Assembly (NCBI GenBank): GCA_900545275.1
Contig: UQYG01000003.1
Span: forward strand, 99,032 to 163,031
DNA: 64,000 bases
Source: an uncultured Sutterella sp.
GTDB lineage: Bacteria > Pseudomonadota > Gammaproteobacteria > Burkholderiales > Burkholderiaceae_F
Direction: 5' to 3'
A program made the position numbers and the translations under genes. A model generated the notes under the pieces. The model was not told where the DNA came from and ran no database searches. It was given only the letters and a program-made list of their open reading frames with translations. Positions 32,551-46,550 of this stretch are shown in pieces. Positions within the stretch are counted from its first letter, which is position 1. The number at the start of each line of letters is the position of its first letter.

Positions 32551-32621
32551 CTCAAGTCAGACAGTCTTTTACCCAAAGCTGTCGCTTGCAAAGGAAGTAC
32601 CTAACTCCAAGCGTTACGGTC

Positions 32622-32862: not shown

Positions 32863-33047
32863 TCTTGCGACTTCCAGAACCTTCTCGCAGAGGACTTCCG
32901 CGGGAGTATTTCCAATTTTTGTTTGGAGACGGAGACTTGACTCGAAACTTTGATCAACATCAAGCATATTGTGTTTTGCCGGTCCCATTAGGAAAAGTTG
33001 GTAATTTCTTGAAGAAGACCACTGCGACACTTTAGCACGAATGTCAC
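32863..33047 (-). repeat. Leader-like element, copy 2 (degraded homolog of cas6 3' coding end)
   Basis: 185 bp between the last intact repeat and the HNH stop. The 61 aa minus-strand ORF inside (…KIGNTPAEVLCEKVLEVARVRMKP) is homologous to the cas6 C-terminus (…KIGTDPLELNSEKPLTVGAVRMKP). Copy 1 has a frame-disrupting indel, so it is not under coding selection. Confidence 0.7.
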
Positions 33048-33824
33048 TCAGGCTTTCCAGCCGTAGTACTCGCGGTGCGCCGCGGTGATTTCATCGTGCT
33101 CGGCTTCCGAGACGAGGATCATGTTCTCGACGCTGTCGGCGCCGCCCTCGGAAATGGGTTGGATGTGGTGCACTTCGTAGCCATCGGGAAGTTCGACGTA
33201 GCCGTGCTGCGCCAAGAACTCCGCCCGCACGCCCGGATCGCGCACAGCCTCTTCCGCGTCGACGTGTTCGGACGTCGGATCCTTCCCCGCGTCGATGAGC
33301 GCTTCGAGATCCGACGCGTTCCCTACGAACATCCCGTTTTCCACCGAACCTTCCGGCAGGGAGGCATAGGTGAAGCTTCCCTCGGGCATGCCTTCCGCTC
33401 CGCCCGGCTCTGCGTCCGCGTCCACGTCACCTGCGCCGTCGAGAAGACTCGCCCCCGCGAGCGCTCCGATCCCGAGGGACGCGATGAAGGCGGCGCGCTG
33501 GGCATTCTTCCCGTTCGACAAAAAGGCCTCGGGGGACGGCGCTTTGGCGGCGTCTTCGACGAGCTGCGCGGTGCCGTCGAGCGCCTGTCCGAACCCCGCA
33601 ACGACCTGATCGACGCGTCGACCCACGCGGTCGAAGGCCGTTTCGGTGCGCCCGTGACAGACGTCGTTCAAAGCGCTCGCCGCAGTGTTGATCGTCGCGG
33701 CGGTACCCGCAAGAATGCCCGTCGCGAGATGCACGCCCGTGCGACCGGCAAATCCCACGACTTGGCAACCGATGCGTACGGCCCGCGATAGGTTGATTCC
33801 CTTTTCTCTCTGAAAACGCGCCAT
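33048..33824 (-). CDS. Full-length HNH (colicin-DNase-type) nuclease protein with Ala/Gly-rich N-terminal region and predicted TM helix (258 aa)
   Basis: C-terminal approx. 75 aa HNH domain (HHIQPISEGGADSVENMILVSEAEH...H). Hydrophobic segment AAFIASLGIGALAGASLL. No signal peptide. Separated by 46 and 68 bp from upstream genes on the same strand, downstream of the cas operon. Confidence 0.7.
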   Translation of the reverse strand: MARFQREKGINLSRAVRIGCQVVGFAGRTGVHLATGILAGTAATINTAASALNDVCHGRTETAFDRVGRRVDQVVAGFGQALDGTAQLVEDAAKAPSPEAFLSNGKNAQRAAFIASLGIGALAGASLLDGAGDVDADAEPGGAEGMPEGSFTYASLPEGSVENGMFVGNASDLEALIDAGKDPTSEHVDAEEAVRDPGVRAEFLAQHGYVELPDGYEVHHIQPISEGGADSVENMILVSEAEHDEITAAHREYYGWKA

Positions 33825-33892
33825 TTCTTCCTCCTTTTCTTCCGGCGGGAATCGAAACCTTCGGTCCGATTCCCTCGATTCTCCTCCAAACC

Positions 33893-34270
33893 TCAGGGCC
33901 AGGGGCTCATGCCGTTCCTGTTGCCCCAGGGATCCGTGCTCGGACGGTCCACGTAGCCTCCGCTCGGCGTCATCTCGTAGTCGGGCGTGGAGCCGTAGGA
34001 CCCGTCGGGACGGATGTAGCTGTTGTGTCCGGGACCGTAGGAACCGTCCGGATGCATGTGATAGTCACCCGAAGGGCCGTAACTGCCGTCGGGATACATC
34101 TGGGTCGACGACCCAGAGTGGTAGCTGCCGTCCGGAGCCATCGTCATCTTGCCGTCCGGACCGTAGCTGCCGTCGGGGTACATCTGGAAGGCGGCCGCGG
34201 AAAAGCTCACGGCCGCGAGCCCCGCGAAGAGACCGCCCAAAAGCAAGGATTTGGCGAGAGGTTGATACAT
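33893..34270 (-). CDS. Secreted small repeat protein (approx. 7 tandem 14-aa PDGSYGP repeats)
   Basis: ORF 33893..34396; likely start MYQPLAKSLLLGGLFAGLAAVSFSAAAF (signal peptide) at 34270; repeats M-x-PDGSYGP-x4. Confidence 0.55.
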   Translation of the reverse strand: MYQPLAKSLLLGGLFAGLAAVSFSAAAFQMYPDGSYGPDGKMTMAPDGSYHSGSSTQMYPDGSYGPSGDYHMHPDGSYGPGHNSYIRPDGSYGSTPDYEMTPSGGYVDRPSTDPWGNRNGMSPWP

Positions 34271-34316: not shown

Positions 34317-35480
34317 TCAGTGGTTCTCCGCGACCGGGATTTGAATGTCGTCGGGTACGAGCGCAAGTGCGTAGGCGACGAAAGGGCGCTTCCCATAAGT
34401 GACGATCCGAAAACGCGCAGCTGCCGCCTTGCCGAGTTTTTTCGCGAGTGCGGAACCGATCTGTGAGCGCTTTTCCTGGAAGTACTTGAGAAAGTCCTCG
34501 TCGGATCGGATCGCTTTTCGAGCGCGCTCGATGTCCCCAGGACGAGTGGGAAAGAGTCTCTCGTACAAGGGGAAGAACTCTTCCTCGGCGTGCCGAAGTC
34601 CCGGACGAACGGGATCTTCCTTTCTCTTTGCGCGTTCTGCCATCCAATGAAGGGTCGCGTACTGCGCGGGAGCGAGAAGCACGTCGACGCCGTCGCAGAC
34701 GACGCCCCGCGCGTCGTCGCGCAAAGCGAGGGCGGTGGACGGGAAAAGCGTCCGCTGCGCCTCTTCTACGGCACGTCCGTAAGAGGCGTCGCCTGTAAGA
34801 AGATCTTCAGGCAATCCCGTGCGAAGCCGCACGATCGGAATGTCGGCGAGCATCACGCGCGCATCCGAAGAAGAGTAGGCGACGCCGCGGGCGTCCACGA
34901 TTTCCTTTTCTTCGGGCGGCGGATAGAAGAAGTCTCGGTTCGATTCGAAAGGTTCGTTGACGAGCACGTGTGAAACGGAGTCCCGCGCTCTGGCGAAAAG
35001 CGACATGGCGTAACCCGCGAAAAAGCCCATGCTCTTTCGGCCTCCGGCGATCGAGACGTGCACGATGGTGTTCGGGTCCGAACAGGCGTTGCCGATCACG
35101 CGAACGATCGTGTCGGCGGCCGCGGCATTCTCTTCGGGGGTGCGAATGTCGTCGAGTTCCCGTCCATCGCCGCCCTTAATGACGGTGATGGAATCTAAGT
35201 CAAAACGAATCTTTCCGACGAGACCGTAGTCGCGGCAAAAAGCGTGAAAGCGGCCCTCAGCGGGATCAAGCAGGTCGCGCAGAGCACGGTTTCGCCCGTT
35301 GCAGGTGGTGATGAGGCGCACCTCGTCAGGACAGAAACGACGCTCTTTGATCAGCGCCCAAATCGTTTCCGTGACGACCTGAGGCGACATGCCGACGACG
35401 GCGACGAGCAGTCTTCTCGGGACTCGCACCGACGTTTCTTCTTTGGAATTTCCAGGTTTCACGTTTTTCCTCCTTTTCAT
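34317..35480 (-). CDS. CARF-domain CRISPR-associated ancillary protein (NE0113/Csm6-Csx1-like N-terminus; C-terminal effector domain unassigned)
   Basis: 387 aa; N-terminal LLVAVVGMSPQVVTETIWAL resembles CARF domain motif; last gene of cas cluster before PDGSY/HNH genes. Confidence 0.55.
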   Translation of the reverse strand: MKRRKNVKPGNSKEETSVRVPRRLLVAVVGMSPQVVTETIWALIKERRFCPDEVRLITTCNGRNRALRDLLDPAEGRFHAFCRDYGLVGKIRFDLDSITVIKGGDGRELDDIRTPEENAAAADTIVRVIGNACSDPNTIVHVSIAGGRKSMGFFAGYAMSLFARARDSVSHVLVNEPFESNRDFFYPPPEEKEIVDARGVAYSSSDARVMLADIPIVRLRTGLPEDLLTGDASYGRAVEEAQRTLFPSTALALRDDARGVVCDGVDVLLAPAQYATLHWMAERAKRKEDPVRPGLRHAEEEFFPLYERLFPTRPGDIERARKAIRSDEDFLKYFQEKRSQIGSALAKKLGKAAAARFRIVTYGKRPFVAYALALVPDDIQIPVAENH

Positions 35481-35530: not shown

Positions 35531-36679
35531 TCATTCTTCCAGAAGCGCTCGGAACACCTCGCCTCCGCGCCGCAGGTCGGAACGGGTGAGAACCTTGATC
35601 TTTTGGTCTTTGGCCCGCTGCAGATCCTTTTCCTTGAGGGGGACGAAAGTCACCAAGACTGCCTGCACGGCGCTTCCCAATCGCTTTGCGAGGAGCCCGA
35701 GCTTGGAAAGTGCATCGTTCGCATCGTTTTTGCCGTAGTCGATCGTCTTGCACTCGAACACGAAAAGTCGGTTGCGGTACCAGACCGGGACGTCGAGCTC
35801 GTTGTGTGTTCCCGAGAGATTCGTTTTCGACTCGTGCCCTTCGCAGTACTCGACCGTGAGGTTCGTATCGACGATAAGACCGGGCAGGTGCAATTTACGG
35901 ATCACGTCGCTCACGTATTCTTCTAGCCAGCCACCGTTGACGAAAAATCTCGTTTCCTCATTGGTGAATCGGATCTTGCTGCCGTGAATCGAGAGAAGAT
36001 CGCCTTCCACAAGTCGGTCTGCCAGGGCGGCGAGTGCCGGATCGCGATCGACGTCCTTGCCGTCAATCGAAAGACTGTCCTTGGCTACTGAAGCCAAGTA
36101 GTTGAGAGTCGGAACGAGTTTGGCGAGAGAATCGCTTTTGACGAGCTCTTCGGAGAGCGTGAGAAGTTCCAGTGTAAAGGGCATTCCCCGCTTCGTTTCT
36201 TCCGCGCGGAATCCATAGGCGCGCAGGTAGGGCAGAAGGGGTTTCGCAAAACGAAGCGGAATCTTCCGGACACCGCGGACGTTCGCACCGAAGTAGAGCA
36301 CTTCTCCCGTGTCGTGCTGGAGGTAGAAGCTGTCGAGATCGGCGAGTTGTGCAACACGTTGCGCAACGAGGCTCATGAGTTTCGTTCCGCCCGTCAGATT
36401 CACCGCGGTACCCTTGTCGAGATTCTCGACGAGCGTCAAAAGAAGGTTTTCGAGCTTCTCTACGTCGTAGGCGTCGTCGAGCGGCACGCGTTCGCATTCG
36501 ATCGGATAGGGGAGAAGCTTGATCGCTTCCTCCAGGCTGCGCGCGGCTTCGGACATCTGGGGCGTCACGGCGAGGAGAACGCGTTGCGGAGCGAAGTCGC
36601 GGTCGAGAAGCGGCAGCAAATTGGCGGCCGCCTGCTGCGAGACGAAGCAAAGGTGAGTGTGCGGGACGGAATCGGACAT
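35531..36679 (-). CDS. can2: Can2/Card1-like cOA-activated nuclease (CARF plus PD-(D/E)xK nuclease)
   Basis: ORF 35531..36772; start MSDSVPHTHLCFVSQQAAANLLPLL at 36679; N-terminal CARF-like region, C-terminal LFVFECKTIDYGKND (E-x-K) nuclease motif. Confidence 0.6.
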   Translation of the reverse strand: MSDSVPHTHLCFVSQQAAANLLPLLDRDFAPQRVLLAVTPQMSEAARSLEEAIKLLPYPIECERVPLDDAYDVEKLENLLLTLVENLDKGTAVNLTGGTKLMSLVAQRVAQLADLDSFYLQHDTGEVLYFGANVRGVRKIPLRFAKPLLPYLRAYGFRAEETKRGMPFTLELLTLSEELVKSDSLAKLVPTLNYLASVAKDSLSIDGKDVDRDPALAALADRLVEGDLLSIHGSKIRFTNEETRFFVNGGWLEEYVSDVIRKLHLPGLIVDTNLTVEYCEGHESKTNLSGTHNELDVPVWYRNRLFVFECKTIDYGKNDANDALSKLGLLAKRLGSAVQAVLVTFVPLKEKDLQRAKDQKIKVLTRSDLRRGGEVFRALLEE

Positions 36680-36768
36680 GGCGAAAGTTTGAAAAGATAG
36701 TGCGGGAGAATGCAAAGGAATCGAAAGGTTCTGCCTTCGGTTTATTTTCACATCAATTCGTGCGTCTG

Positions 36769-37086
36769 TCACGACCCGCGCAGAGGTATGCCGTCGGAGC
36801 GTTTCGTAACGACGAATTCTTCGAGCCGCCCACGGAAGGTACGCACCGCCGTAAGGTCAAGCTCCTTGCCGCGGGCCTCGGGCGTGAGGTCGAGCGTGAG
36901 CGAGAAAAACTGGGCGCCCCTGGCGCAGACCTCGGACGCCAATCCCACGGGAAGTGTTCCGAGCACCGTGTCGCCGGCCTGCACTTCTTCGGAAGAGAGG
37001 TGCTCGACCCAGCGGTCCACGGGGAGCCCTTCGCTCTTGGCCCAGGCCACGGCGCCGGGATGACGGGAAACAAACCAAACGGTCAT
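36769..37086 (-). CDS. Small CRISPR-associated protein, Csx16/VVA1548-like (tentative)
   Basis: ORF 36769..37311; probable start MTVWFVSRHPGAVAWA at 37086 (105 aa); family assignment from memory of the VVA1548 N-terminal motif. Confidence 0.4.
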   Translation of the reverse strand: MTVWFVSRHPGAVAWAKSEGLPVDRWVEHLSSEEVQAGDTVLGTLPVGLASEVCARGAQFFSLTLDLTPEARGKELDLTAVRTFRGRLEEFVVTKRSDGIPLRGS

Positions 37087-37448
37087 GAAAAGAATTTTTC
37101 CTTTGTGCTGAAGAAATCGAGCTTCTCGCAAGAGAGCTCGTCTTCCGGTTCCATCTCGGAGAGTGAAAGCTCTCCGGGCAGGGCGCTCCACGAGATACCT
37201 GCGGGGAGCGTTCCTTTTCCCGAGTGACCGCGTGCCCCGCGGTCGGGAATGCGATAGCAACGGACGTCGTCCTCCCGCAAGTCCACGACGGTTCGCATGA
37301 CCGAAGCGCAACGGAGCGCATCGCTCGGCGTCCCGGACAGGATGAACACGCTGTATTCGATCGGTATCCCGAAACCGAGCATTTTGTGGTGAACTTTCGC
37401 GAGGCGTTTCGGATCCCGTATGTCGTAACCGATAACGTAGGTACTCAA
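37083..37448 (-). CDS. cas2: Cas2 (copy a, downstream of cas1; TTG start)
   Basis: Within ORF 37083..37979. TTG start after RBS aaggag, overlapping the cas1 stop. MSTYVIGYDIRDPKRLAKVHHKMLGFGIPIEYSVFIL...CYRI matches the Cas2 fold pattern (catalytic Asp in YDI). Confidence 0.65.
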   Translation of the reverse strand: MSTYVIGYDIRDPKRLAKVHHKMLGFGIPIEYSVFILSGTPSDALRCASVMRTVVDLREDDVRCYRIPDRGARGHSGKGTLPAGISWSALPGELSLSEMEPEDELSCEKLDFFSTKEKFFS

Positions 37449-37458
37449 GGGGACTCCT

Positions 37459-38409
37459 TTACGAAAGTCGTACGGTCGCCCTCTGCAACATGTCGACGAG
37501 GTCGCATGCGGCGGCGGTAAGCTGTCGGCGCAGTTCTTCGGCGCAGGGTTCCCAGGCCGGATAAAAACGCTCGCGGCCGGCTTTGCCAAGAAGGCAGGAA
37601 CCGTCGTCCGGTGTGGAAAAGTCTTCCGGCCGCAACGTTTGTTCGCGAAAACATTGGATGGAGAATCGATCCACTTCGGGACGTAAGGCCTCAACAACGT
37701 CGCAGGCGAGGGATTCACGACCGTACTCGAGCGCATGGTAGAACCCGACGTAAGGGTCGAGACCGGCCCCGTAGAGTGCAATGGACGCCTCGGCCTGCAA
37801 CAGCGTGTAGCCGAGCGAAAGTACCGCGTTGAAGGGGTCTTTCGGCGGCCGGCGGTTTCGTCCGTGAAATCCCAGAGACTTGGGGAGCACTTCAGCGAGC
37901 GCCTGAAAGTATTCGCGCGCGGCAACGCCTTCGAGGCCGCGAAGCGAGGCAAGATCGGCGCACGCAGCCATCTTCTCAAGGCTTTCCTTCATAAAACGTT
38001 GACGGCGTCCGACAAGAAAGCGGTGTCGAAAGTTCCCGTCCAAGATCGTTTCGAGAAGCGCGATCTGTCCCTTGAGCTTCTTTTTCATCAGCTGCTTGGA
38101 AATTTTCAGGCAAAACTCAGGATTCTGTGACATCCGGAATTGAGCGATGCGGCGCGAGGCATCGTTGTGTGGCGTAGCCATCAGAAGAGAGGGCTCCGCC
38201 TTGCGGCCTGAGAGCACAACCACGCCGATCCCCTTTTCGCCAAGCTTGCCGAGCAGGTTGGCGTGCAGGATAACGTCGCCGCGAAGGAAGACGCGTTCGA
38301 GCGGTGCCAAGGGAATGGTGCCGGCGCGTGCTCCCTTTTCATAAAAGGCGAGCGCTTCGCCGTCGAGGCGAACTTCCACGCCGCGTCGATCAATATAGAG
38401 ACTGCTCAT
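37459..38409 (-). CDS. cas1: Cas1 integrase
   Basis: 316 aa, Cas1-like length and motifs (LYIDRRGVEVR..., LSLGYTLL, conserved acidic/His residues). Confidence 0.85.
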   Translation of the reverse strand: MSSLYIDRRGVEVRLDGEALAFYEKGARAGTIPLAPLERVFLRGDVILHANLLGKLGEKGIGVVVLSGRKAEPSLLMATPHNDASRRIAQFRMSQNPEFCLKISKQLMKKKLKGQIALLETILDGNFRHRFLVGRRQRFMKESLEKMAACADLASLRGLEGVAAREYFQALAEVLPKSLGFHGRNRRPPKDPFNAVLSLGYTLLQAEASIALYGAGLDPYVGFYHALEYGRESLACDVVEALRPEVDRFSIQCFREQTLRPEDFSTPDDGSCLLGKAGRERFYPAWEPCAEELRRQLTAAACDLVDMLQRATVRLS

Positions 38410-38476
38410 GTTGGACCTTGTGAACTGGAATGAGTAAATGGGGATGCTGATCAGATTTGCATGCGGGATCGATGAT

Positions 38477-38755
38477 TCAACAAATCAGAAACGGCCGGAC
38501 GGATTGCCGTTTTGCGGTTCCGAGATAGAGCGGTTTGCTCCGGGGATCGAGTTGAAAATAATGAAGTCGATTCGTTGTCGGATTCATTGTTTTTTGAATG
38601 TTGTTGACCAGGGCGTGTAACTCATTTTGAGACATCAGACACTCGTAAAAGGATTTTTGTCCTCCAATTGCGTGTGCTTTCACAAGGTTGTGAACTTTTC
38701 TTTGAGCGTAGCGGTCGGAAATGTCATAGCAAATTAAGTAGATGCATCGATCCAT
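38477..38755 (-). CDS. cas2: Cas2 (copy b, upstream of cas1; AT-rich gene)
   Basis: 92 aa MDRCIYLICYDISDRYAQRKVHNLVKAHAIGGQKSFYECLM is a classic Cas2; GC content approx. 45% against approx. 62% for neighbours. Confidence 0.8.
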   Translation of the reverse strand: MDRCIYLICYDISDRYAQRKVHNLVKAHAIGGQKSFYECLMSQNELHALVNNIQKTMNPTTNRLHYFQLDPRSKPLYLGTAKRQSVRPFLIC

Positions 38756-38947
38756 GGGGAACCTCCGATGAGGTTATTCTATCGTGCTCAAAGAGAGATC
38801 TTGAAAATCGCAAGTTTGTGATTTTTAATTTTGTTCTTGGAAGGATCTTGGGTCGGCAATCAATGTAGAAATTAGATGGGGTAAATCCATCCCGTACGAG
38901 ATTTTATTCAAATCCATGCATAACCACGGCCGATTCCATAGCGTGGA
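38756..38947. promoter_or_regulatory. AT-rich flank between cas2b and CRISPR array (alternative leader candidate)
   Basis: approx. 190 bp AT-rich with ttgtgatttttaattttg; contains motif caagtttgtgatttt shared with region upstream of cas10 (46544..46562). Confidence 0.4.
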
Positions 38948-39261
38948 GTTTCAATCCCTTCGAAATCAGGGTTTCATTCGAACCTGAGAAAGACGCGAAG
39001 GTCGAGGAGATCAAAAAGTCTCAATCCCTTCGAAATCAGGGTTTCATTCGAACAAAGGTATGCCTGCCAAGTATGCTCCATACGATTCGTCTCAATCCCT
39101 TCGAAATCAGGGTTTCATTCGAACCGCACTCAAGGCGGCGAAAGCCTTCGAAAAGCTGTCTCAATCCCTTCGAAATCAGGGTTTCATTCGAACAAATACG
39201 ATTGTTATTTCATCCAAGAACCAAAGTCTCAATCCCTTCGAAATCAGGGTTTCATTCGAAC
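38948..39261 (-). CRISPR. CRISPR array, 5 x 36 bp repeats, 4 spacers (32-35 nt)
   Basis: Repeat gtctcaatcccttcgaaatcagggtttcattcgaac at 39018, 39089, 39158, 39226. Repeat at 38948 has 1 mismatch (gtTtc). Spacers 34, 35, 33, 32 nt. Probable transcription on minus strand with leader = cas6 3' end. Confidence 0.95.
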
Positions 39262-40287
39262 CGCTCCGACGGTCAACGGTTTCTCGCTGTTGAGTTCCAG
39301 AGGATCCGTTCCAATTTTATCCGTTCTGTCGTGACTTTTCTCTAAGGTTTGATTTGCATCAAGTAGTTTGTACTTTCCCAATCCAAAAACCGCACTCTTA
39401 CCCAGGTGTATCCATTGACCAAGAAAAAGGAAAGTCTGTAACTCCGCAGGCACTTCAAAAAGCGTGAAATCTCCGACAACCCCGCCCAATCGGATCTTCT
39501 GATCCTGACGGCTCGAGTAACGACTCCAATTCCGCCAGCGAAGCTGGTTCTCGCAGCGGATGCCGCGTGCGAGCGCGGACAGGCGCGAGTAGTCAGGTTC
39601 AATTTTCCGGGCGTGAAATTCCATCAGCAGGCCGATTCGTCGAACCAGAGCGTTTAGAAGCGTGCCGGGTACGATTTCTCGAATCCCGATGTTACGCCCG
39701 TTGTTTTGCAGGCGAAGGGGCGTGGCAAAGCTAAGCGTCACGTTTTGCGACTCGGGAAAGTCGGGAAGCTTTACGGTCTTCGGATGTTGGATGACGGAGC
39801 GCTGTGCCGCACCGTACACCGACTGGTAGGTGCCGTTCACTTCGACGTTCACGTTTTCGAGTTCGGCGGAACCCTTGGCAACTTCGCCCGCGAAGGCGCG
39901 CTGCACGGCGAAAATGATGAGCGGCAGTTGGTGGAGCGCCCTTCCGATTAACACCATGTGAAAGGAAAACGCTTCCCCGGGTTCCGACGTGCGCCGTCCC
40001 CACGCGGGAGCTTCGACTACATAGGGGTGCGGAATCTGACTGAATTTCTGCAGAACGTGCTCTTCAGGTGGCGCCGATTCGAAAAGGACGGCGTAAGGGC
40101 AGGTGCGGTAGAGCATGCACTCGGGGCAGGTCGGTCGATGTGTCATGCAGGCCGTTTTGAGCAGAGCTCGACCGATGGCTCCGCGGATCGCGGAGCCAGC
40201 GTAGTCGGGCCAGAGCATCGTTTTCGTCACGCGCAGGTCGAATCGATAGCGCGCAATGGGCCATTCCTTGGGAAGAGGAGCGGTCAT
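39244..40287 (-). CDS. cas6: Cas6 endoribonuclease; stop codon lies inside the terminal CRISPR repeat
   Basis: ORF 39244..40449; start MTAPLPKEWPIARYRFDLRV at 40287; G-rich loop GKSAVFGLGKY near C-terminus; last 5 codons (VRMKP*) encoded by repeat sequence. Confidence 0.75.
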   Translation of the reverse strand: MTAPLPKEWPIARYRFDLRVTKTMLWPDYAGSAIRGAIGRALLKTACMTHRPTCPECMLYRTCPYAVLFESAPPEEHVLQKFSQIPHPYVVEAPAWGRRTSEPGEAFSFHMVLIGRALHQLPLIIFAVQRAFAGEVAKGSAELENVNVEVNGTYQSVYGAAQRSVIQHPKTVKLPDFPESQNVTLSFATPLRLQNNGRNIGIREIVPGTLLNALVRRIGLLMEFHARKIEPDYSRLSALARGIRCENQLRWRNWSRYSSRQDQKIRLGGVVGDFTLFEVPAELQTFLFLGQWIHLGKSAVFGLGKYKLLDANQTLEKSHDRTDKIGTDPLELNSEKPLTVGAVRMKP

Positions 40288-40292
40288 GGAAT

Positions 40293-41816
40293 TCAATTCT
40301 CCTGTCGCAGGGCGCGGAAGACTGCCTTGAGTTCCTTCGCCTTTTTCCCTTGATACATGTTTTTCGCCTTGGCGACGGGGCCGAGTTCTCGGGCGACCTC
40401 GATCTGCAGATCCACGGACCACGAAAGAGCGGTCTGAAGGAAGTTCCACGTTTCGTTGTAGAGTTCGGATCCGGGCTTCACGTCGCCCGAAGTGGCCTTC
40501 AGTTTCTTCACCATGTCTTCGAGAAGAAGTTTCTCGGGCGAAAGTTGTGAGCGGCGAATTTCATCGGCACGGGCGGCCTCTTCGGCAAGCAGGCGCTTCT
40601 TTGCTTCTTCCGCTCGAAGGGCGGTTTCTTCGGCCTCCTTTCGACGAGCTTCTTCGAGAAGGGCCTTACGCTTTTCGAAAAGATCGGTGAGGTCGATGAC
40701 GGGCGTCTCGGGCTGTCGGGCGCAGAAGCTCTTCACCGCCTCCCGCACGGGATCGTCCGAACGTTCCAGGAGACACCACCCGAAGGGAAGGGTTTCCTGT
40801 CCGTCCATGACGCGCCATTCCGTTTTGGTGCTGGTTTTGCCTTTTTCTTTGTAAATGGAAGCAATGCCGCCCTGCAGGACGATGCTTTCCGCTCCGACGT
40901 TTTTCCCGATGCGGATGACCGCGACACGGTTTTGACGGATGTCTTTCTCGAGTTTTCGGAGGAGCTGCGAGAAACTGTCGCTCCAGGCGCGACCTTCTGA
41001 AAAGCGGGCGTACTTTTCGACTTCCTTCTTCAGGATCGGAGTGTAATAGGCGTTGAGATCCGTGAAGATTTCCTTGACGCTTCCGTAGACATGGGAAGCG
41101 CGTTGCCCGGCATTCGGGGGCGTGAGACCGAGCGACCCTTTGAACGGGCGCACTGCGCCACGCTCGAGAATTTCGAAGGCTGCCCAGAACTCCCCTTTTT
41201 GAGTGAGCGGTACGCCGTCACCTTTATAGCAACGTTTTGCAATGATAATGCGCGAGGGAACGGACTGCGTCGTGAGCAAGTCCGCTACCTTCAAAAAGCG
41301 CATGGGAGAATTCGAGAAAGTGCTGTCGAGGACTTTCCGGTCCAAGTCGTCCTTGATGTCGCGCGGCGCGCCGGCGTTCACGCGGTTCAACAGCGCCGTG
41401 TGGATGACGCCCTTGAGGGCGCTGCCGGGGAGGTAGTACGCATCCCCGTCATTTGTCGCGCAATACGTGGTGCGCGCGATTTTGTTCTGGTTTCGACCTT
41501 CTCCCTTTTCCGCCATCAGGCGGTAGGTCTTCACGCATTGTCCGCAGACGGGAAGGGCGTTTTCCGCAAAGACAAGGAAAGTCTCGGCGTTTCGCTGAAA
41601 GAACTTGACGACGGAGGGAATGCTCCCGGAACGTACGGCGGAGAGAAATTCCTTTCGCAGCGCCGCGTCCATCGGCACGACGGCGGGGTCGAACGAATAA
41701 AGGACGTTCTGATGGATGACGTAGTTCGTCGGTTCGTAGTCTTCGCCGCAGCCGATGTGAAGGGGCGACAAAGGCGTGAGGGAAATCGCTTGGCTTGTGA
41801 TCCTGGCGTCAGTCAT
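40293..41816 (-). CDS. csm5: Csm5 (Cas7-family, type III-A)
   Basis: ORF 40293..41921; start MTDARITSQ at 41816 overlapping csm4 stop by 4 bp; RAMP-like. Confidence 0.75.
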   Translation of the reverse strand: MTDARITSQAISLTPLSPLHIGCGEDYEPTNYVIHQNVLYSFDPAVVPMDAALRKEFLSAVRSGSIPSVVKFFQRNAETFLVFAENALPVCGQCVKTYRLMAEKGEGRNQNKIARTTYCATNDGDAYYLPGSALKGVIHTALLNRVNAGAPRDIKDDLDRKVLDSTFSNSPMRFLKVADLLTTQSVPSRIIIAKRCYKGDGVPLTQKGEFWAAFEILERGAVRPFKGSLGLTPPNAGQRASHVYGSVKEIFTDLNAYYTPILKKEVEKYARFSEGRAWSDSFSQLLRKLEKDIRQNRVAVIRIGKNVGAESIVLQGGIASIYKEKGKTSTKTEWRVMDGQETLPFGWCLLERSDDPVREAVKSFCARQPETPVIDLTDLFEKRKALLEEARRKEAEETALRAEEAKKRLLAEEAARADEIRRSQLSPEKLLLEDMVKKLKATSGDVKPGSELYNETWNFLQTALSWSVDLQIEVARELGPVAKAKNMYQGKKAKELKAVFRALRQEN

Positions 41817-42760
41817 TCGAAATCCTCCGGTTGGAGTTCCGGAACGGGCAGCAACGGGGCGTAGCCCTGATGCACCGCGTCGGCATAAGCCGAATGTCCG
41901 GAGATGCCCTTTCCCGTCCATTGCATGGCACGAGGTTCATCGCACCAGAAGAAGGCTCCGGTGTCGGCAAGGACGATCGGCTTCTTGAAGGGCGTGCCTT
42001 CGTTGGCGCGCACGTTGCCGTGCCGGCCGAAATAGGTGATCGGACGATAAAACGAAAGGTCGCCGTCAAAACCGCAGCCCGAGGGCGCCGAGGCGGAAAG
42101 CGCAAGCCACCCGCGGGACGGGGCGTTCTCGGGGAGCTTCGCCATCGCCGCCACGTCGAATTTTCCCGCCCCAGTGCTCGCATCGCGTCCGAAGCCGAAA
42201 CCGCCCACGGCCTCGAGGAGACCTTTGAGTTCGTCGGCCGAGAGACGCTCTTCGTCGAGGTCGACGTAAAGGTCGAGCGTCTGTCCGCGGGCGAAAACGT
42301 TCGCGCTCACGTCATAGGGCGCGAAGGGACCTTCTCCCGTCGTTCCCGTGAGGCGGGAGATGCTGTTGTGCGTGCGCCAGACTTCGCGCACGAAGGGACC
42401 TTCCTGCGTGGCGCTCACGCCGATGTTGTCCCGGGCCTCCTTTTGCCATGCGATCGGAGACTTGCAAAGCGCTTCGACGGGAAGCCACTTGAGGCTTTTG
42501 AGGCGCTTTCTATCCTTGACCGATTCGGCGCGTCGCCAGACGTGGGCGGGAACCGTCGGAACCGGTACGAAGCCGTGCGGGAAGGCGTCCGAGAGGACGG
42601 CGAAGGGACGTCCCGAACAATAGCCTTCGAGGAGCGCCGTCAGGCGCTCTTCGCCGAAAGCCTCCCGAACGCTCCAGGCCACATGTCCGAAGAGCATGCC
42701 GCCCGTCATCGCAGAGGCGAAGGGAGAAAGGGGATGAATCTGCACGCAATAGCGGGTCAT
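41813..42760 (-). CDS. csm4: Csm4 (Cas5-family, type III-A)
   Basis: 315 aa; N-terminal MTRYCVQIHPLSPFASAMTGGMLFGHVAW typical Csm4. Confidence 0.8.
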   Translation of the reverse strand: MTRYCVQIHPLSPFASAMTGGMLFGHVAWSVREAFGEERLTALLEGYCSGRPFAVLSDAFPHGFVPVPTVPAHVWRRAESVKDRKRLKSLKWLPVEALCKSPIAWQKEARDNIGVSATQEGPFVREVWRTHNSISRLTGTTGEGPFAPYDVSANVFARGQTLDLYVDLDEERLSADELKGLLEAVGGFGFGRDASTGAGKFDVAAMAKLPENAPSRGWLALSASAPSGCGFDGDLSFYRPITYFGRHGNVRANEGTPFKKPIVLADTGAFFWCDEPRAMQWTGKGISGHSAYADAVHQGYAPLLPVPELQPEDFE

Positions 42761-42769
42761 AGAGCAACC

Positions 42770-43474
42770 TCAGCGCTTTTCAAAGGCGGGAACGGCGTTG
42801 AAGCGCTCCGTCACGTCTTCTCCGTCGACCGTGACGTTCGCAAAGCGGATCTTCCCGTAACCGCGGGAGGTGGAGCCGCCGAGACCGTCGAGTTCAAGGA
42901 GCTTCATGCCGGCAAAGAGAACGTCGAGCAGGTCCTTTTCCCCGTTGATCACTTTGAGGCCGACGCGGAAACGGAATTTCGCGCCCGCCGGAACGCGTTC
43001 GGTCTGACGGGGATGTTCGGCCGCGCCCGTGATGCGGTTGATCATGTTTTCCGTCTTGACGTCGGTCCAGACGCGGTGGCGTTCGTAGTATTCGCGCGAC
43101 CAGTCGGGGTCGAGCGAGGCGTCCCAGAAGGAAAGACGCGTGGGTCCCACGAAGCGCGCTTCGTCGACGTTCGGGCGATCGCTCGCGGCAAGGCCGAAGA
43201 GCTTCAGAATTCGAAGAGCTTCGTCGTCCTTCGTTTCCTTGTAAGTCTTCCAGGAAAGGGGCGTTTCCTCCACGAGGCCGCTGCGCCACTCAAGCATCGA
43301 GCGCATCTTGCCCTTGAGGCTCGAACCGGGGATGAAGGGTTCGCCCGTGACGGGATCCTTCATGACGCTGTTGTCCACGCCGCCGATGTGCATTTCGGTG
43401 TCGCTCGCGCCCACGTGAAGACCCGTTTCACAGATCAGGTCGGCTTGGACGGTGATGATGTTGTCGAGTTTCAT
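42770..43474 (-). CDS. csm3: Csm3 (Cas7 backbone subunit)
   Basis: 234 aa; GLHVGAS...GSSLKGKMRS RAMP motif. Confidence 0.9.
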   Translation of the reverse strand: MKLDNIITVQADLICETGLHVGASDTEMHIGGVDNSVMKDPVTGEPFIPGSSLKGKMRSMLEWRSGLVEETPLSWKTYKETKDDEALRILKLFGLAASDRPNVDEARFVGPTRLSFWDASLDPDWSREYYERHRVWTDVKTENMINRITGAAEHPRQTERVPAGAKFRFRVGLKVINGEKDLLDVLFAGMKLLELDGLGGSTSRGYGKIRFANVTVDGEDVTERFNAVPAFEKR

Positions 43475-43491
43475 GTTGCGTTCCTCCCGCC

Positions 43492-43884
43492 TTATTTCCG
43501 GATTTCTTCAAAGTACTTCTTGTAGCCCATGAAGGATTCGAAAAGAAGCTTTCCGTTCTTCAGGGTTTCGACGTCGCGGATTTGGTCGGCGAGTCGAACG
43601 AGAAAGTCGAGGCACGTGTCGTCGATGAGGTTGCGCCCGTTGGCGTAGTGAGCCTTCGCTTTGAGCATCTGAATGAAGGGTTCGGCCTTTTGGAAGCCCA
43701 GTTCCGGGTCGCTTTCCTTCAGCACGCGGTCGTGCCAGAAGACGACTTCGTCGTAAAAACGCCGGATTTGGGCCGTGGCGTTCTTTTTCTTCTTGTCTCG
43801 ATCGGGTGTGCAGGCCAGCGCCAGATCGCGGGCCGTATCCGAAAAGAGTGTCCTATCGGGCGCGGACAAATTAAAAGTGATCAT
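43492..43884 (-). CDS. csm2: Csm2 (Cas11 small subunit)
   Basis: 130 aa alpha-helical protein in canonical position between cas10 and csm3. Confidence 0.75.
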   Translation of the reverse strand: MITFNLSAPDRTLFSDTARDLALACTPDRDKKKKNATAQIRRFYDEVVFWHDRVLKESDPELGFQKAEPFIQMLKAKAHYANGRNLIDDTCLDFLVRLADQIRDVETLKNGKLLFESFMGYKKYFEEIRK

Positions 43885-43913
43885 GATGCGGTTCCTATGA
43901 GTGACAGACGGCT

Positions 43914-46550
43914 CTATTTGCGGTACACGCGAATGCGGTAAAAGAGGTTTGTGAGCGGCACGCGGAAGCGTTCGCCTTCGGATTCAATGCCGGCGCCGAT
44001 GACGGAAAGCAGGGATTCGGTGAAGGTCGCTACGTCTCCGTCGTTGCTGCGGCAGGCGTCCCTTGCAAAACGTGCGGTCCGATAGCAAAGACGGCTTCGC
44101 CAGACGCTGCTTCGAGGATCGTCCCGACGACCGGCGAGTTCGAGAAGTTCAAAGAGCGAATAGAGATAACTCGTGGAGAGATCCCAATGTTCGCGAAGGT
44201 GCTCAAGCTTCTCCTCGATGCCGTGCAGTTCCTCCCACTTTTCCCACGGGAAGGTGAGACCGTAGATCGTGACGGCGTTTCGACCCGAAGCCTTGGCGGT
44301 TTCCAGCGCCGCTTCCGCGGCGTCCGAGAGGGCTCGAACGGGAATGCCGGGTTTGGCGACCGTGAAGCCCGCGCTGAAGTGAACTTCCGGATTGTGGGCG
44401 GCAAAGTCCGCAAAGCGCTCGCGAAGCTCCGCGGCGAAGGTCAGGGTCTTTCCGCGCGGACCAATGAAGCTGAAGTCGTCTCCACCCGCGAAGACCGTAT
44501 AGATCGAGGGGTGTTCGCTTCGGCAGAGGAAGGGAACGTAGACCGAGAAGAAGGCGTTCATTTCGCGCGAGAGCTGCGCCGTCTTCGCAAACGTGAGACG
44601 ACGGCGGGGCGTCACGCCCGAACCCTTCAGCACGGGGTCGGCGAGGCCTTCCTGGAAGATGCGTCCGAGCTGATCTACGTCGCCCTTGAGGTGGGCGATC
44701 GCGTCCACGCCTCGGATCGTGCCGTCCTCTTCGAGGGAAAGATCTTCGCGCGAAAGCCAGGAGAAAGGCTTGATGCGTTGCGGTCCCACGTCTTCGGTGT
44801 CGAGTCCTTCATAGACGGGGTTCAGATTTTCCTCGCCCTTCACAAAGCGCGGCACGTAGCGGTTGATCGAGCGGCGTGCGAAGCCCTTCCAGAGAACTTC
44901 GTCCGCCGTGTGCGGGACGGTAAAGTCCCAGGCGCGCCGCACCGCATCGATGCCGCGCTCTTTGACGAGGGCGGAGAATTGCGAAAGACCGGCGAAAACC
45001 ACGCGGTATCCGAAGAGCGGCAGTTCGAGCGCTTCGCAGCCGTTGGGAAGCACGCCGTGCTCGTCATCGCGCAGCAGAAGCAGAAGGGATGTTCTCGGGA
45101 GCGCTTCGCCGATGCGGATCTGATCTCGCGAGACGGCGCAGGAGGGCGTTGCGTCGACCGTGCGGTCGGCCGGCCACCGCCCCTGCCAGGCACAGACGCC
45201 TTCGGGAAAGTCGACGGGCAGCACTTCGGGAACGGACGCCCCCGTGCAAAGATCAAAGCGCTGCAGTTTCGCGCGCTCGAGCGTTCGGACGAGCTTCGTC
45301 ATGAGTGCAGGAAGACGCTCCGCTCGGAGGTCCGAAAGCCGGGCGCCCTGCCACACAATGCCGATTCCCGCTTCCGCACAGGTATGACGGATGAACCACG
45401 CGTCGATCTCGGGACGCAGGGCCTCGAGTTTTTCTCTGGTTGCCGGCGTGTCGGGCGCGACGATCAGGAATTTTCCCGCCGCGTTCGTGAGCTGGGCGGT
45501 CGAGGGAAGATCGAGGGCCTCAAGAATCCGAAGCGCACAGGCTTCGGTGAGAAGCGACACGTAGAAAGACCGACCGCGCAGGATCTTCGCCATCTTGCCG
45601 TTCGTCTTTTCGTGCCCCGAGAAGATGAAGTTCTGGATTCCGAAGAAGTCCCCCTGGATGAAAAGGAGCGAATCCTTTTCCAGGATCGTTTGGTCGTCGA
45701 ACGAGGCGGCAAAGTCTTCATGCGTTTCCTCGCCGGCTTTGATTTGCTCGAGTCCCCATCGCCAAAGCGTAGCGGCAAGCGCGGCAGAGACGTGCGAGTG
45801 GTCGTAGAGCGACACGTCGGGTTCTGCATCGCCCTCGGTGAGGGCGGGAACGGCCTGACCGAAAGTAAGCCAGAGCGTGTCAAAGGCGTCGAGCCACAAC
45901 GAGGAGGACGCCTTGAGTTCCGGCGCGATCGAGTTCCCTGCACGGGAGAAGGCTTCAAAGAGTTGTTTGTACTCTCGTTCTGTCTCGTCTCGACGAAGAA
46001 GAGTGGTTTCCTTTTGCGGGAAGATCGCCGAGGCGCTCAGGGGCTTGAGGGGTTTGCGATACTGAAGCGTACCCGCCTCGCGTTCGCTTCGGTCGAGCCG
46101 CACTTCTTCGAGAAGGCTGCGAAGTCGAATCGTGAGGCCGTCCTCTTTGCAGGACGGTTTGGAGCCGACGGGCGGGAAGCCTGAGGCCGCCTTGTCAGCC
46201 GTTTCAAAAATACGACCAAGGAGTTCCGTGTCTTCGGAAAGCGCCTTCGCAGTCTCGGAGTCGGCGCATTGAACATGGGTGTGCGGGCAGGTTTCAGGGA
46301 ACGCCGCGAAGGCGAGCGCGGCGTGAGCGCCCGCCGGTGAGCCGCTTGTTGGGGACGCCGCAGCTTTCCCAGCCGCCCTTTGGGCCAGGACGTCGAGATG
46401 TCTCAAAAGAGCGGCGTGGGTTACGCGGCCGGTTGTATCGAGAAGGTTCATGGTGGTTCTCAGATCCTGTTGCGTCGAAGCGGGTACGGTTTTCCGATTC
46501 GGCGATGCAAAAACTATATCACGCGAACCAAAATTCTCAAAAAGTTGCAA
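43914..46550 (-). CDS. cas10: Cas10/Csm1 (cyclase palm domains; canonical HD motif not evident)
   Basis: 878 aa; GDFFGIQNFIF (palm 1) and FAGGDDFSFIGP (GGDD cyclase motif); N-terminal approx. 290 aa lack an obvious HD dipeptide motif; start may be internal Met approx. 46451. Confidence 0.8.
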   Translation of the reverse strand: MQLFENFGSRDIVFASPNRKTVPASTQQDLRTTMNLLDTTGRVTHAALLRHLDVLAQRAAGKAAASPTSGSPAGAHAALAFAAFPETCPHTHVQCADSETAKALSEDTELLGRIFETADKAASGFPPVGSKPSCKEDGLTIRLRSLLEEVRLDRSEREAGTLQYRKPLKPLSASAIFPQKETTLLRRDETEREYKQLFEAFSRAGNSIAPELKASSSLWLDAFDTLWLTFGQAVPALTEGDAEPDVSLYDHSHVSAALAATLWRWGLEQIKAGEETHEDFAASFDDQTILEKDSLLFIQGDFFGIQNFIFSGHEKTNGKMAKILRGRSFYVSLLTEACALRILEALDLPSTAQLTNAAGKFLIVAPDTPATREKLEALRPEIDAWFIRHTCAEAGIGIVWQGARLSDLRAERLPALMTKLVRTLERAKLQRFDLCTGASVPEVLPVDFPEGVCAWQGRWPADRTVDATPSCAVSRDQIRIGEALPRTSLLLLLRDDEHGVLPNGCEALELPLFGYRVVFAGLSQFSALVKERGIDAVRRAWDFTVPHTADEVLWKGFARRSINRYVPRFVKGEENLNPVYEGLDTEDVGPQRIKPFSWLSREDLSLEEDGTIRGVDAIAHLKGDVDQLGRIFQEGLADPVLKGSGVTPRRRLTFAKTAQLSREMNAFFSVYVPFLCRSEHPSIYTVFAGGDDFSFIGPRGKTLTFAAELRERFADFAAHNPEVHFSAGFTVAKPGIPVRALSDAAEAALETAKASGRNAVTIYGLTFPWEKWEELHGIEEKLEHLREHWDLSTSYLYSLFELLELAGRRDDPRSSVWRSRLCYRTARFARDACRSNDGDVATFTESLLSVIGAGIESEGERFRVPLTNLFYRIRVYRK

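Follow-up and report, generated by a model that had tools for sequence, protein, structure and literature searches.

The CRISPR-Cas locus of an uncultured Sutterella sp. raises the question of why the open reading frame (ORF) of cas6 runs through an entire CRISPR leader and ends inside the first repeat of the array. The features concerned lie within the window (the whole 64-kb stretch of DNA that was analysed) and are listed in Table 1. The overlap seems to be neither a designed feature nor a new mechanism. It is probably a neutral run-on in an ordinary, active type III-A locus, in which the array is most likely expressed by read-through and a second array probably arose by duplication of a module.

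Table 1. Positions of the CRISPR-Cas features in the window. WIN denotes the window's own locus, L### related loci and P#### related Cas6 proteins; miniA and miniB are the two mini-arrays.
Feature	Position	Strand	Remarks
cas10/csm1	43914-46550	-	TIGR02578 equivalog, E = 5e-159, 531 bits (cut-off 170); PF22335 and PF18211
csm2	43492-43884	-	PF03750
csm3	42770-43474	-	PF03787
csm4	41813-42760	-	TIGR01903, above cut-off
csm5	40293-41816	-	TIGR01899, above cut-off
Effector gene block csm1-csm5	40293-46550	-	
cas6 core, codons 1-308	39364-40287	-	Homology with other Cas6 family members
Palindrome TTGAT-N4-ATCAA, CRP/FNR-type consensus	39349-39362	.	Upstream edge of the leader
CRISPR leader, 102 nt (codons 309-342 of the cas6 ORF)	39262-39363	-	Homologous to miniA, miniB and the array flanks of relatives
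Conserved leader block AAAATTGGAA	39309-39318	-	TTGGAA invariant in 7/7 Sutterella-clade leaders
Leader block CCTCTGGAACTC	39292-39303	-	7/12 match to boxA consensus; 42 nt before repeat 1
CRISPR array (five 36-nt repeats, four 32-35-nt spacers)	38948-39261	-	Read 39261 -> 38948
Repeat 1, leader-proximal	39226-39261	-	First 15 nt encode VRMKP
cas6 stop codon TGA	39244-39246	-	Repeat positions 16-18, in the conserved CCCTGA of repeat 1
Terminal (leader-distal) variant repeat	38948-38983	-	3' end ATTGAAAC
Trailer between array and cas2	38756-38947	-	Conserved in WIN, L001, L002, L004 and L013; not in L008
cas2 (92 aa)	38477-38755	-	PF09827
cas1	37459-38409	-	PF01867, E = 1.7e-72
miniA, second array with leader and cas6 3' relic	32623-33030	-	Downstream of an HNH gene (33048-33824)
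miniB, single degenerate repeat (30126-30161) with leader copy	30126-30344	-	Downstream of an HNH gene fragment (30345-30722)

The locus is a complete type III-A (Csm) CRISPR-Cas system. Its genes all lie on the minus strand in the order cas10/csm1, csm2, csm3, csm4, csm5, cas6, the array, cas2, cas1, cas2', csx16, card1/can2 and NE0113. Each identity was confirmed by Pfam and NCBIfam, which bears out the same-strand run from cas10 to a CARF gene, with the array between cas6 and cas2, read by the first-pass annotation from the letters. Cas6 matches PF10040 with 47.9 bits (cut-off 25), and the CARF-type effectors comprise one of Card1/Can2 type and the Csm6-type product of the last gene, NE0113. 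The five-repeat array next to cas6 was also as described, with repeats at 38948-38983, 39018-39053, 39089-39124, 39158-39193 and 39226-39261. Four of these are identical and the copy at 38948 has one mismatch, and no such repeats are expected by chance. Read on the minus strand, the repeat has the 3' end ATTGAGAC and contains a stop codon in two of its three frames. It belongs to a family kept beside this family of Cas6 proteins, the conserved part being the 3' two-thirds in minus-strand reading.

The leader is on the cas6 side, as had been claimed, and occupies the same DNA as the final 39 codons annotated for cas6. This placement is indicated by the variant end repeat, spacers shared at the cas2 end, the homologous flank of the second array and an antisense bias among spacers. 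The variant repeat ending in ATTGAAAC is found at the cas2 end in WIN, L093, L094, L097 and L099, and the terminal repeats there are more degenerate in L001, L008, L013 and L100; variant or degenerate copies always occupy this end and are never propagated. The copy at 39226-39261, which had been taken for the terminal repeat, is the first and leader-proximal one, the terminal copy being the variant at 38948. Spacer content varies among strains: L100 carries only spA, to which L013 adds seven spacers on the cas6 side; L097 carries only spX, to which L094 adds two on the same side; and WIN has a unique spacer adjoining cas6. From these comparisons, new spacers appear to enter at the leader-proximal (cas6) end, and deletion-only scenarios are a less likely source of the differences between strains. 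A similar spacer (29/34) in the cas6-proximal position of L013 and L004 would, taken alone, indicate the opposite polarity.

Spacer strand was assessed with a codon-usage classifier trained on the called genes of relatives, which is 78-79% accurate. In the cas6-to-cas2 orientation, 45 of 65 spacers look antisense to coding sequence by this measure (p = 0.0026). An earlier classifier, for which the window's longest ORFs served as training set, was dropped at 52% accuracy because shadow ORFs had contaminated that set. A search of GenBank phages with 42 concatenated Sutterella-clade spacers gave one marginal match (E = 0.02), antisense to a Ralstonia phage integrase gene, and exact-core spacer scans of IMG/VR gave no match. 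Rfam yielded sub-threshold CRISPR-DR35 and DR8 matches on the plus strand, judged uninformative for repeat orientation because their scores lay below gathering and DR models are not oriented by transcription. The array was oriented by the ATTGAGAC 3' end, the position of the terminal variant repeat and the antisense bias of spacers; its transcription from the cas-gene strand is supported.

The cas6 ORF ends GAVRMKP*, and its last codons (GTT CGA ATG AAA CCC TGA) lie, as annotated, in the repeat at 39226-39261. The ORF encodes 347 aa, the final 39 codons consisting of the 102-nt leader and the VRMKP of repeat 1. The Cas6 fold extends to residue ~308 (estimates 306-311): PF10040 covers residues 185-306 and AlphaFold2 is confident for residues 1-311, while pLDDT stays below 50 (30-40) for residues 312-347, where the alignment is shallow, and the 39-residue tail is predicted to be disordered. 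Most homologues stop 1-6 residues past FGLGxYxL; among the 120 listed, the majority are 304-325 aa long, with a query coverage of 86-88%. The tail is missing from most homologues and shortened in P0005 (L008). Between WIN and L008, differences at the three codon positions number 22/17/98 in the cas6 body and 13/11/15 in the tail, and the tail changes 2.4 times faster (0.36 differences per site vs 0.15). Counts are 15/16/13 between WIN and miniA and 11/11/14 in a further comparison of the tail. With changes spread flatly over codon positions and a third-position excess confined to the body, the tail seems to be free of purifying selection on protein and to evolve like non-coding DNA. Synonymous divergence is not lowered in codons 271-300, giving no sign of extra constraint at the end of the core, and the drop in GC3 there is limited to the Sutterella clade rather than family-wide.

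Related loci place this tail in context. Across 18 loci whose array immediately follows cas6, the distance from the end of the core to repeat 1 is 93-115 nt; in nine of them, not counting L008, the stop comes 1-6 codons past the core. In the sister lineage L008-L011, whose Cas6 is 88% identical, the stop falls mid-leader, 57 nt before repeat 1, with the repeat in the same place and distinct spacers. Read in the cas6 frame, the leader is open in 4 of 16 lineages, compared with 7/16 and 6/16 in the other frames, and shuffled leaders are open with a probability of 0.14-0.40; in a family-wide search for stop-codon depletion, open frames were thus not enriched in the cas6 frame. Two separate clades have run-on ORFs, and each keeps them across considerable divergence. 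Within the Sutterella clade, three of four diverged leader lineages are open, marginally above expectation (p ~0.05), an excess that could hint at weak selection. Alignment of related cas6 3' ends and leaders, which had been suggested as a check, upheld a leader conserved across arrays, but not the run-on tail as a conserved protein. The flat codon positions, the absence of the tail from most homologues, the sister-lineage stop and the predicted disorder all argue that what had been described as the cas6 3' coding region is no selected protein-coding sequence.

The overlapped stretch is instead a DNA/RNA element, with conserved blocks under spacing constraint, that abuts repeat 1. The AT-rich character ascribed to the cas6 3' end is real: GC is 0.40-0.49 over ~39262-39470 (0.40-0.47 in the leader) vs 0.55-0.65 in the remaining cas6. 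Alignments of the leader to the mini-array flanks and those of relatives show no indels over 102 nt, despite ~43% divergence, which fits a spacing constraint and would also fit maintenance of the frame. Its conserved motifs are TCAAA, TTGGAA, GGAAsTC...GAGAA and GTCG, and no match was found to those described leader motifs that could be tested. Inspection by eye revealed no strict IHF consensus (WATCAANNNNTTR) in the leader. Folding of the leader with repeat 1 (z = +0.7) gives no evidence for a structured leader RNA.

Two further copies of the leader are present in the window. The miniA array (32623-32862) contains good repeats at 32827-32862 and 32758-32793 and degenerate copies at 32689-32724 and ~32623-32654; its leader is 32863-32964, beyond which a remnant of the 3' end of cas6 extends to ~33030. 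miniB is a duplicate of the miniA module across an insertion sequence (transposase 30865-32541), and L008 has the same HNH-leader-array arrangement as miniA. Both mini-arrays have, on the high-coordinate side, a flank with homology to the 3' end of cas6. Leader-only local alignments between the cas6 end and these flanks give z ~3.7, scores reached by 3/500 and 9/500 shuffles, and the miniA flank translated in the frame of the repeat matches Cas6 residues 289-347 with a BLASTP E of 2e-10. The proposal that the leader is preserved in mini-arrays that lack cas6 holds insofar as the same leader precedes both arrays. The homology, however, extends past the leader into a relic of cas6 core coding sequence, and it therefore reflects duplication of a segment and not only a possible conservation of function. 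The trailer at the cas2 end is unlike the other flank of miniA, as judged by reading the sequences rather than by formal alignment, and scans found no promoter-like or terminator-like sites in it.

Consensus scans also address how the array might be transcribed. Over 38300-39800, the leader showed no sigma-70-like promoter, and the interval from cas6 to the array showed no terminator-like site; the only minus-strand terminator-like match lies inside cas6 (39737-39751) and is weak and within chance expectation. A sigma-70 and terminator scan of 29900-33900 likewise found nothing in the mini-array leader. The promoter thought to be embedded in the cas6 3' end thus did not emerge by consensus scan, the palindrome TTGAT-N4-ATCAA being the only candidate regulatory site. 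Two perfect copies occur in 64 kb (0.06 expected), at the same position of both leaders, and L001 and L004 have a degenerate version in which the left half-site is lost. This placement suggests a site for a regulatory protein, possibly with a leader promoter invisible to a sigma-70 scan. Relatives carry boxA elements in the leader on the cas6 strand, scoring 12/12 in L090 (Nitrincola), 11/12 in L016, L022 and L073, and 10/12 in L033. In L090, boxA overlaps the last four cas6 codons, so transcription there must begin within cas6 or further upstream. On the minus strand, none of the window's three leaders has a boxA (GCTCTTTAACAA-like) match within three mismatches; the best is 7/12, and CCTCTGGAACTC occupies the position at which boxA (GTTCTTTAACA) is found in L033 and L073. 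In the leaders compared, boxA of at least 9/12 occurs in 0 of 9 run-on loci (~6 lineages) and boxA of at least 10/12 in 5 of 13 earlier-stop leaders, a contrast that is not significant (Fisher p ~0.1). There are published precedents for read-through: it was shown by experiment from cas6 into the array of the Myxococcus xanthus type III-B system (PMC6061681), and the Salmonella type I-E CRISPR-I array has been described as co-transcribed with upstream cas genes (PMC7665894). Given these precedents, the L090 boxA and the absence of an intervening terminator or sigma-70 site from the scans, co-transcription of the array with cas6, as had been proposed for the cas mRNAs, is plausible.

Several other explanations were weighed against this evidence. 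A leader promoter within the run-on ORF, perhaps dependent on a CRP/FNR-type protein at 39349-39362, could be the main source of pre-crRNA and make the array a nested independent unit. It would account for the AT-rich zone, for the two perfect palindromes of the 64 kb sharing one place in both leaders, and for a TAAAAT hexamer noticed on direct reading 29 nt downstream of the palindrome. That hexamer would, however, set a transcription start placing the palindrome centre at ~ -48.5, whereas the canonical centre in class II CRP/FNR promoters is -41.5; miniA, L008 and L012 do not preserve TAAAAT, the left half-site has gone from L001 and L004, and the sigma-70 scan was empty. This origin of pre-crRNA is accordingly regarded as unlikely. 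Placing the leader on the cas2 side (38756-38947), with the array read from the plus strand and the cas6-side homology as inherited coding sequence, is barely credible. The AT-rich cas2-side flank is conserved among close strains, and L013 and L004 share their similar cas6-proximal spacer, but this reading must contend with non-propagated variant repeats always at the cas2 end, trailer-end spacers common to two strain pairs, a ATTGAGAC repeat end that exists only on the minus strand and whose 3' two-thirds are conserved family-wide, the antisense bias of spacers, boxA elements of relatives on the cas6 strand and a second array devoid of the cas2-side flank. The plus-strand CRISPR-DR35 matches that would favour it are below threshold and come from models unoriented by transcription.

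The tail itself might be thought to matter. As a peptide with a function in Cas6 (for instance as a linker or for docking), with leader-like conservation secondary to protein constraint, it would explain why all ~90% identical Cas6 proteins (P0001-P0004) possess it with DKIGTDPLELN invariant, and why the translated mini-array flanks stay open and share KIG...EK. This is highly improbable in view of the flat codon-position differences, truncation in P0005/L008, absence from most of the family, pLDDT of 30-40, and retention of the same DNA blocks both in cas6-less mini-array leaders and, untranslated, in short-tail relatives. It is also quite unlikely that the run-on is adaptive and couples translation of cas6 into repeat 1 to crRNA biogenesis. 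Ribosomes might shield the leader from Rho, replacing the boxA antitermination of relatives, or Cas6 might control its own mRNA by way of translation ending within the hairpin of repeat 1. The persistence of run-ons over large divergence in two clades, the distribution of boxA between run-on and earlier-stop leaders, the Sutterella leaders without recognisable boxA and the stop on the 5' side of a predicted CCCU/AGGG hairpin are in keeping with such coupling. Against it, the boxA contrast is not significant, other frames are open equally often, and the L008 lineage stops mid-leader yet keeps varied arrays; moreover, the rest of the array is untranslated anyway, so Rho could load further downstream. 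The full combination, in which the run-on is a selected alternative to boxA/Nus antitermination that blocks Rho before the array while Cas6 at repeat 1 might feed back on translation, would explain the recurrence in two clades together with the absence of boxA from run-on leaders, and is very unlikely.

The overlap is most likely a neutral run-on because of the spacing survey, the non-coding-like tail, the sister-lineage stop, the disorder and the lack of cas6-frame enrichment. On this neutral reading, a short leader (~95-115 nt) would begin where the Cas6 fold ends throughout the family. In the Sutterella lineage the usual stop just past the fold is missing, so that ribosomes would read through the 102-nt leader. 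Translation would then halt at the TGA in CCCTGA of repeat 1, which is the first stop in frame; as stops occur in two of three repeat frames, an open leader leads almost automatically to termination within repeat 1. The 39-residue tail would be a tolerated, unselected by-product. From strain comparisons and established knowledge of leaders, the leader probably directs polarised spacer insertion at repeat 1. The array would most likely be transcribed by read-through from the cas operon, possibly with a contribution from a leader promoter, before Cas6 cuts each repeat. The second array, after the HNH gene, would derive from duplication of a module comprising cas6 3' end, leader and repeat.

These findings have consequences for annotation. 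The last 39 codons of 347-aa Sutterella Cas6 entries represent leader and repeat rather than enzyme, as do the ends of similar 340-345-aa entries in relatives from Accumulibacter/Rhodocyclaceae, and CRISPR-finders could overlook both the leader and the first repeat if they mask ORFs. The locus adds a gut betaproteobacterial case to the few type III arrays directly behind cas6 that are probably expressed by read-through. It also defines a compact, fixed-spacing leader of ~100 nt for a wide Cas6 family; since some members carry boxA, the family makes a convenient comparative set for leader function and antitermination. An adaptive run-on would represent a new way to couple translation with crRNA production, but present evidence favours a neutral accident. 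In the literature searched, no description was found of a leader or repeat overlapped by the cas6 ORF, or of a Sutterella type III-A system, which is not proof of absence.

Among known systems, the closest in content are type III-A Csm systems with CARF effectors, such as those of Staphylococcus epidermidis and Streptococcus thermophilus. They share the Cas10/Csm1, Csm2-5, Cas6, Cas1, Cas2, Csx16 and CARF proteins, and likewise have a 36-nt repeat with the 3' ATTGAGAC tag sequence. The Sutterella locus differs in having its array between effector and adaptation genes rather than at the locus end, two cas2 genes flanking cas1, and a cas6 ORF that crosses the leader into repeat 1. The III-B CRISPR4-Cas locus of Myxococcus xanthus resembles it in carrying cas6 immediately upstream of a same-strand leader and array (PMC6061681). 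[quoted passage not shown] The M. xanthus system is distinguished by its type, a 304-bp leader after the cas6 stop, the lack of ORF-leader overlap and control by an ECF sigma factor (PMC6061681). In Salmonella and Vibrio type I-E systems with boxA leaders (PMC7665894), the array is also co-directional with and downstream of a cas gene, and relatives of the Sutterella locus carry boxA, whereas its own leaders have none within three mismatches (7/12 at the boxA position). Canonical integration leaders, such as that of E. coli type I-E with IHF and the type II-A leader-anchoring sequence, show the same abutment on repeat 1, blocks at fixed distance, polarised spacer gain and a degenerate distal repeat. 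The Sutterella leader differs from these in that it lies wholly inside an annotated ORF and its motifs match no described one that could be tested.

The cas6 ORF of the window terminates inside the CRISPR array that follows it. Its C-terminus reads ...GAVRMKP*, with the TGA at 39244-39246, and the first 18 nt of the 39226-39261 repeat on the minus strand (GTT CGA ATG AAA CCC TGA) form its last five codons and stop. ORF and repeat coordinates agree with the first-pass annotation in its description of five repeats with the cas6 stop inside one of them; the label 'terminal repeat' was mistaken, because the leader and transcription polarity evidence makes this the first, leader-proximal repeat. 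No description of a cas6 ORF overlapping leader and repeat in this way was found in the searchable literature. Four of the five repeats are identical and the 38948 copy differs by one base, spacers measure 32-35 nt, and shuffled sequence yielded no comparable repeat matches. All genes around the array lie on the minus strand, with cas-locus identities assigned with Pfam and NCBIfam. The Cas6 of one metagenome-assembled genome, which bears the label uncultured Sutterella sp. (L013; L numbers denote the relatives' cas6 loci compared with the window), is 98% identical to the window protein. Identical or ~90% identical proteins are encoded on contigs from ENA and Logan, several of which are labelled human gut metagenome, and on these contigs the genes are arranged as in the window, with the array again placed between cas6 and cas2. 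Some strains carry IS110-family insertions within the cas locus (L009:11682-12881, L004:13924-15297), located directly after the array at the expected cas2 place in L009 and L010, and between csx16 and card1 in L004-L007. The HNH gene keeps its position at the end of the cas string in relatives, and its product has a weak, sub-threshold NCBIfam match to the HNH region of IscB.

Features of the cas locus and of the second, small arrays (miniA, miniB) at lower coordinates
Feature	Coordinates	Strand	Remarks
cas10/csm1	43914-46550	-	TIGR02578, 531 bits
csm2	43492-43884	-	
csm3	42770-43474	-	
csm4	41813-42760	-	TIGR01903
csm5	40293-41816	-	TIGR01899
cas6	39244-40287	-	PF10040; array comes next
Main-array repeats, 36 nt	38948-38983, 39018-39053, 39089-39124, 39158-39193, 39226-39261		
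cas2, first	38477-38755	-	92 aa; after array
cas1	37459-38409	-	
cas2, second	37083-37448	-	121 aa
csx16	36769-37086	-	
Card1/Can2-type CARF nuclease	35531-36772	-	
NE0113/Csm6-type CARF protein	34317-35480	-	
167-aa ORF		-	between NE0113/Csm6-type and HNH genes
HNH protein	33048-33824	-	258 aa; last of cas gene string
Relic frame	32845-33030	-	61 codons, GTG start; through cas6 3' relic and leader 2 to TGA of first miniA repeat
miniA repeats	32827-32862, 32758-32793; degenerate 32689-32724, ~32623-32654		downstream of HNH gene
IS transposase (DDE)	30865-32541		between miniA and miniB modules
HNH fragment	30345-30722		125 aa; downstream copy with miniB
miniB repeat	30126-30161		single, degenerate; after duplicated 3' fragment of HNH gene

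Repeat orientation, variant-repeat position, spacer sharing and antisense bias independently indicate that the leader adjoins cas6, as the first-pass annotation had suggested, and that the array is transcribed on the minus strand. An ATTGAAA(C/G)-like 8-nt tag is the typical 3' end of repeats processed by Cas6, and the repeat read on the minus strand finishes with ATTGAGAC; in this orientation its 3' two-thirds (CCCTGA....AAGGGATTGAGAC) are conserved beside 22 Cas6-family members, while the 5' third is variable. A variant repeat ending in ATTGAAAC, or a more degenerate copy, adjoins cas2 in the window and in L093, L094, L097, L099, L001, L008, L013 and L100, and occurs only once among internal repeats (third of seven in L004-L007). 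The sole spacers of L100 and L097 are the cas2-proximal spacers of L013 and L094, which possess seven and two more, respectively, on the cas6 side; the window and L094 have two spacers in common in the same order, and the window spacer beside cas6 is unique. Transcript-targeting type III systems require spacers antisense to coding sequence, and 45 of 65 spacers read from cas6 to cas2 were called antisense (p = 0.0026) by a codon-usage classifier trained on the relatives' called genes (strand accuracy 78-79% on 33-nt host gene fragments). The sole database protospacer match, which is marginal (E = 0.02), is antisense to a phage integrase gene, and boxA RNA elements in relatives' leaders lie on the same strand as the inferred array transcription. 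One signal runs counter to this: the cas6-proximal spacers of L013 and L004 (L013:5063-5096, L004:11063-11096) are similar (29/34 identical, boundaries equal) in otherwise different arrays, at odds with simple leader-end turnover. This spacer starts GGGATTA(A/G)GAAG, resembling the repeat 3' end.

The Cas6 fold ends well before the stop codon. The Pfam domain ends at residue 306, AlphaFold2 is confident for residues 1-311 (pLDDT 30-40 for 312-347; 20-sequence alignment), and most of the 120 best homologues have 304-325 aa (86-88% query coverage), with C-termini 1-6 residues beyond the glycine-rich FGLGxYxL motif. Codons 309-347 therefore constitute a tail outside the fold, comprising the 102-nt leader (309-342) and part of repeat 1 (343-347). 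Over the last ~35 core codons (39364-39470; codons ~271-308), GC3 falls from ~0.7 to 0.43, with no reduction in synonymous divergence, in the Sutterella clade and not across the family.

Of 80 genome and 12 metagenome loci surveyed, 22 carry an array no more than 700 nt downstream of cas6; the core end and the start of the first repeat are 93-115 nt apart in 18 of the 22. The position of the stop varies within this spacing. Nine loci stop 1-6 codons past the core, leaving the leader non-coding; the L008-L011 lineage (Cas6 88% identical) stops 57 nt ahead of the repeat, and L043, L048 and L050 stop 7-8 nt ahead. Stops fall within repeat 1 at positions 16-18 in the window's clade, 4-6 in L012 (Cas6 56% identical, repeat different), 6-8 in L054 and 8-10 in L062. 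In a neighbour-joining tree of Cas6 cores, these run-on forms fall into two clades, one Sutterella-related and one Accumulibacter/Rhodocyclaceae. In L093 the main array is reduced to a single terminal-variant-type repeat (L093:2273-2308) with leader and trailer (the array-cas2 gap) intact, and the 347-aa cas6 still terminates in it.

On this evidence the overlap most probably arose as a side effect when a stop codon was lost, and it recurs in relatives by chance-level processes. In the window-L008 comparison, differences by codon position number 22/17/98 in the cas6 body (0.15 per site) and 13/11/15 in the tail (0.36 per site); leader differences are likewise flat (window-miniA 15/16/13, window-L008 11/11/14, miniA-miniB 7/6/4). 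Of 16 non-redundant leaders, 4 are open in the cas6 frame, compared with 7 and 6 in the other two frames, and dinucleotide-shuffled single leaders remain open in 14-40% of trials. Because the repeat has a stop in two of three frames, an ORF passing the leader usually ends in repeat 1. In the L008 lineage, which stops mid-leader, the first repeat is not displaced and the arrays contain different spacers. Flat codon differences, unenriched open frames and the L008 stop indicate that the tail is apparently translated leader without protein-level constraint; a functional overlap is not supported. Two weak counter-signals should be considered: three of four diverged Sutterella-clade leader lineages are open (about p = 0.05), and the 102-nt leader has no indels at ~43% divergence. 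The latter is attributed to constrained spacing of leader motifs, since the second array is also indel-free where cas6 is absent.

A promoter embedded in the leader, as had been proposed, finds no backing in a consensus scan of 38300-39800, which detected no sigma-70-like site anywhere in that range. None of its terminator-like matches separates the array from cas6 or from cas2: there are only two, inside cas6 (39737-39751) and cas1, both weak and within chance expectation. Leader RNA shows no unusual structure (z = +0.7). Perfect TTGAT-N4-ATCAA, the CRP/FNR-type consensus, occurs only twice in 64 kb (39349-39362 and 32950-32963; 0.06 expected), at equal positions of two homologous leaders ~95 nt upstream of repeat 1. 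Its left half-site is degenerate in L001 and L004, and the nearest -10-like hexamer, TAAAAT, would put the palindrome centre near -48.5, not -41.5. Pre-crRNA most likely arises by co-transcription with cas6, as the first-pass annotation had suggested; published precedents make this plausible. In the type III-B system of M. xanthus, transcription has been shown to run on from cas6 through the leader to the array, and the leader promoter is negligible (PMC6061681); Salmonella CRISPR-I is described as co-transcribed with its cas genes and boxA-protected (PMC7665894). Cas6 would cut 8 nt ahead of each repeat's 3' end; this point lies beyond the cas6 stop codon, which would thus stay on the cas6 message. 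Leaders of L016, L022 and L073 (11/12) and L033 (10/12) have boxA matches 43-76 nt upstream of repeat 1, and Nitrincola tibetensis has a perfect boxA, GCTCTTTAACAA (L090:4896-4907), 146 nt upstream of repeat 1 and over the last four cas6 codons (...YKLFNN*), meaning that the transcript carrying it must begin in or before cas6. Sutterella leaders contain no boxA within three mismatches, the window block at that position being CCTCTGGAACTC (7/12), and boxA matches in the nine run-on leaders all fall below 9/12; a role of run-on translation in place of boxA antitermination nevertheless seems highly improbable.

The upstream flanks of miniA and miniB align indel-free with the main-array flank on the cas6 side, and their invariant blocks are common to relatives' leaders. 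Translated in the repeat frame, the miniA flank matches Cas6 residues 289-347 (39% identity, BLASTP E = 2e-10), so the second array began as a copy of 'cas6 3' end - leader - repeat'. The claim that the leader persists there without cas6 is upheld by this homology, but the copy includes a relic of the cas6 core. Only the 61-codon frame, probably a relic mirroring the cas6 tail and not a gene, precedes the second-array leader, which supports the leader as a DNA/RNA element. Since L008 has the HNH - leader - repeat order (90% identical over 367 nt), the second array is older than the split of these lineages; it is missing in L001, L002 and L004. The 'HNH gene - leader - array 2' module is partly duplicated about the IS (30126-33824), the upstream copy having the full HNH gene and four repeats and the downstream copy an HNH fragment and a single degenerate repeat; miniA is followed by a strong hairpin (32524-32552).

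The locus is type III-A by gene content, with the tested membership features present, and departs from that type in layout only. The array sits between the effector and adaptation modules; cas1 lies between two different cas2 genes (37083-38755; likewise L001:11947-13622), an order kept in every Sutterella-clade locus and L012; and the annotated window cas6 ORF takes in the entire leader together with the first 18 nt of repeat 1.
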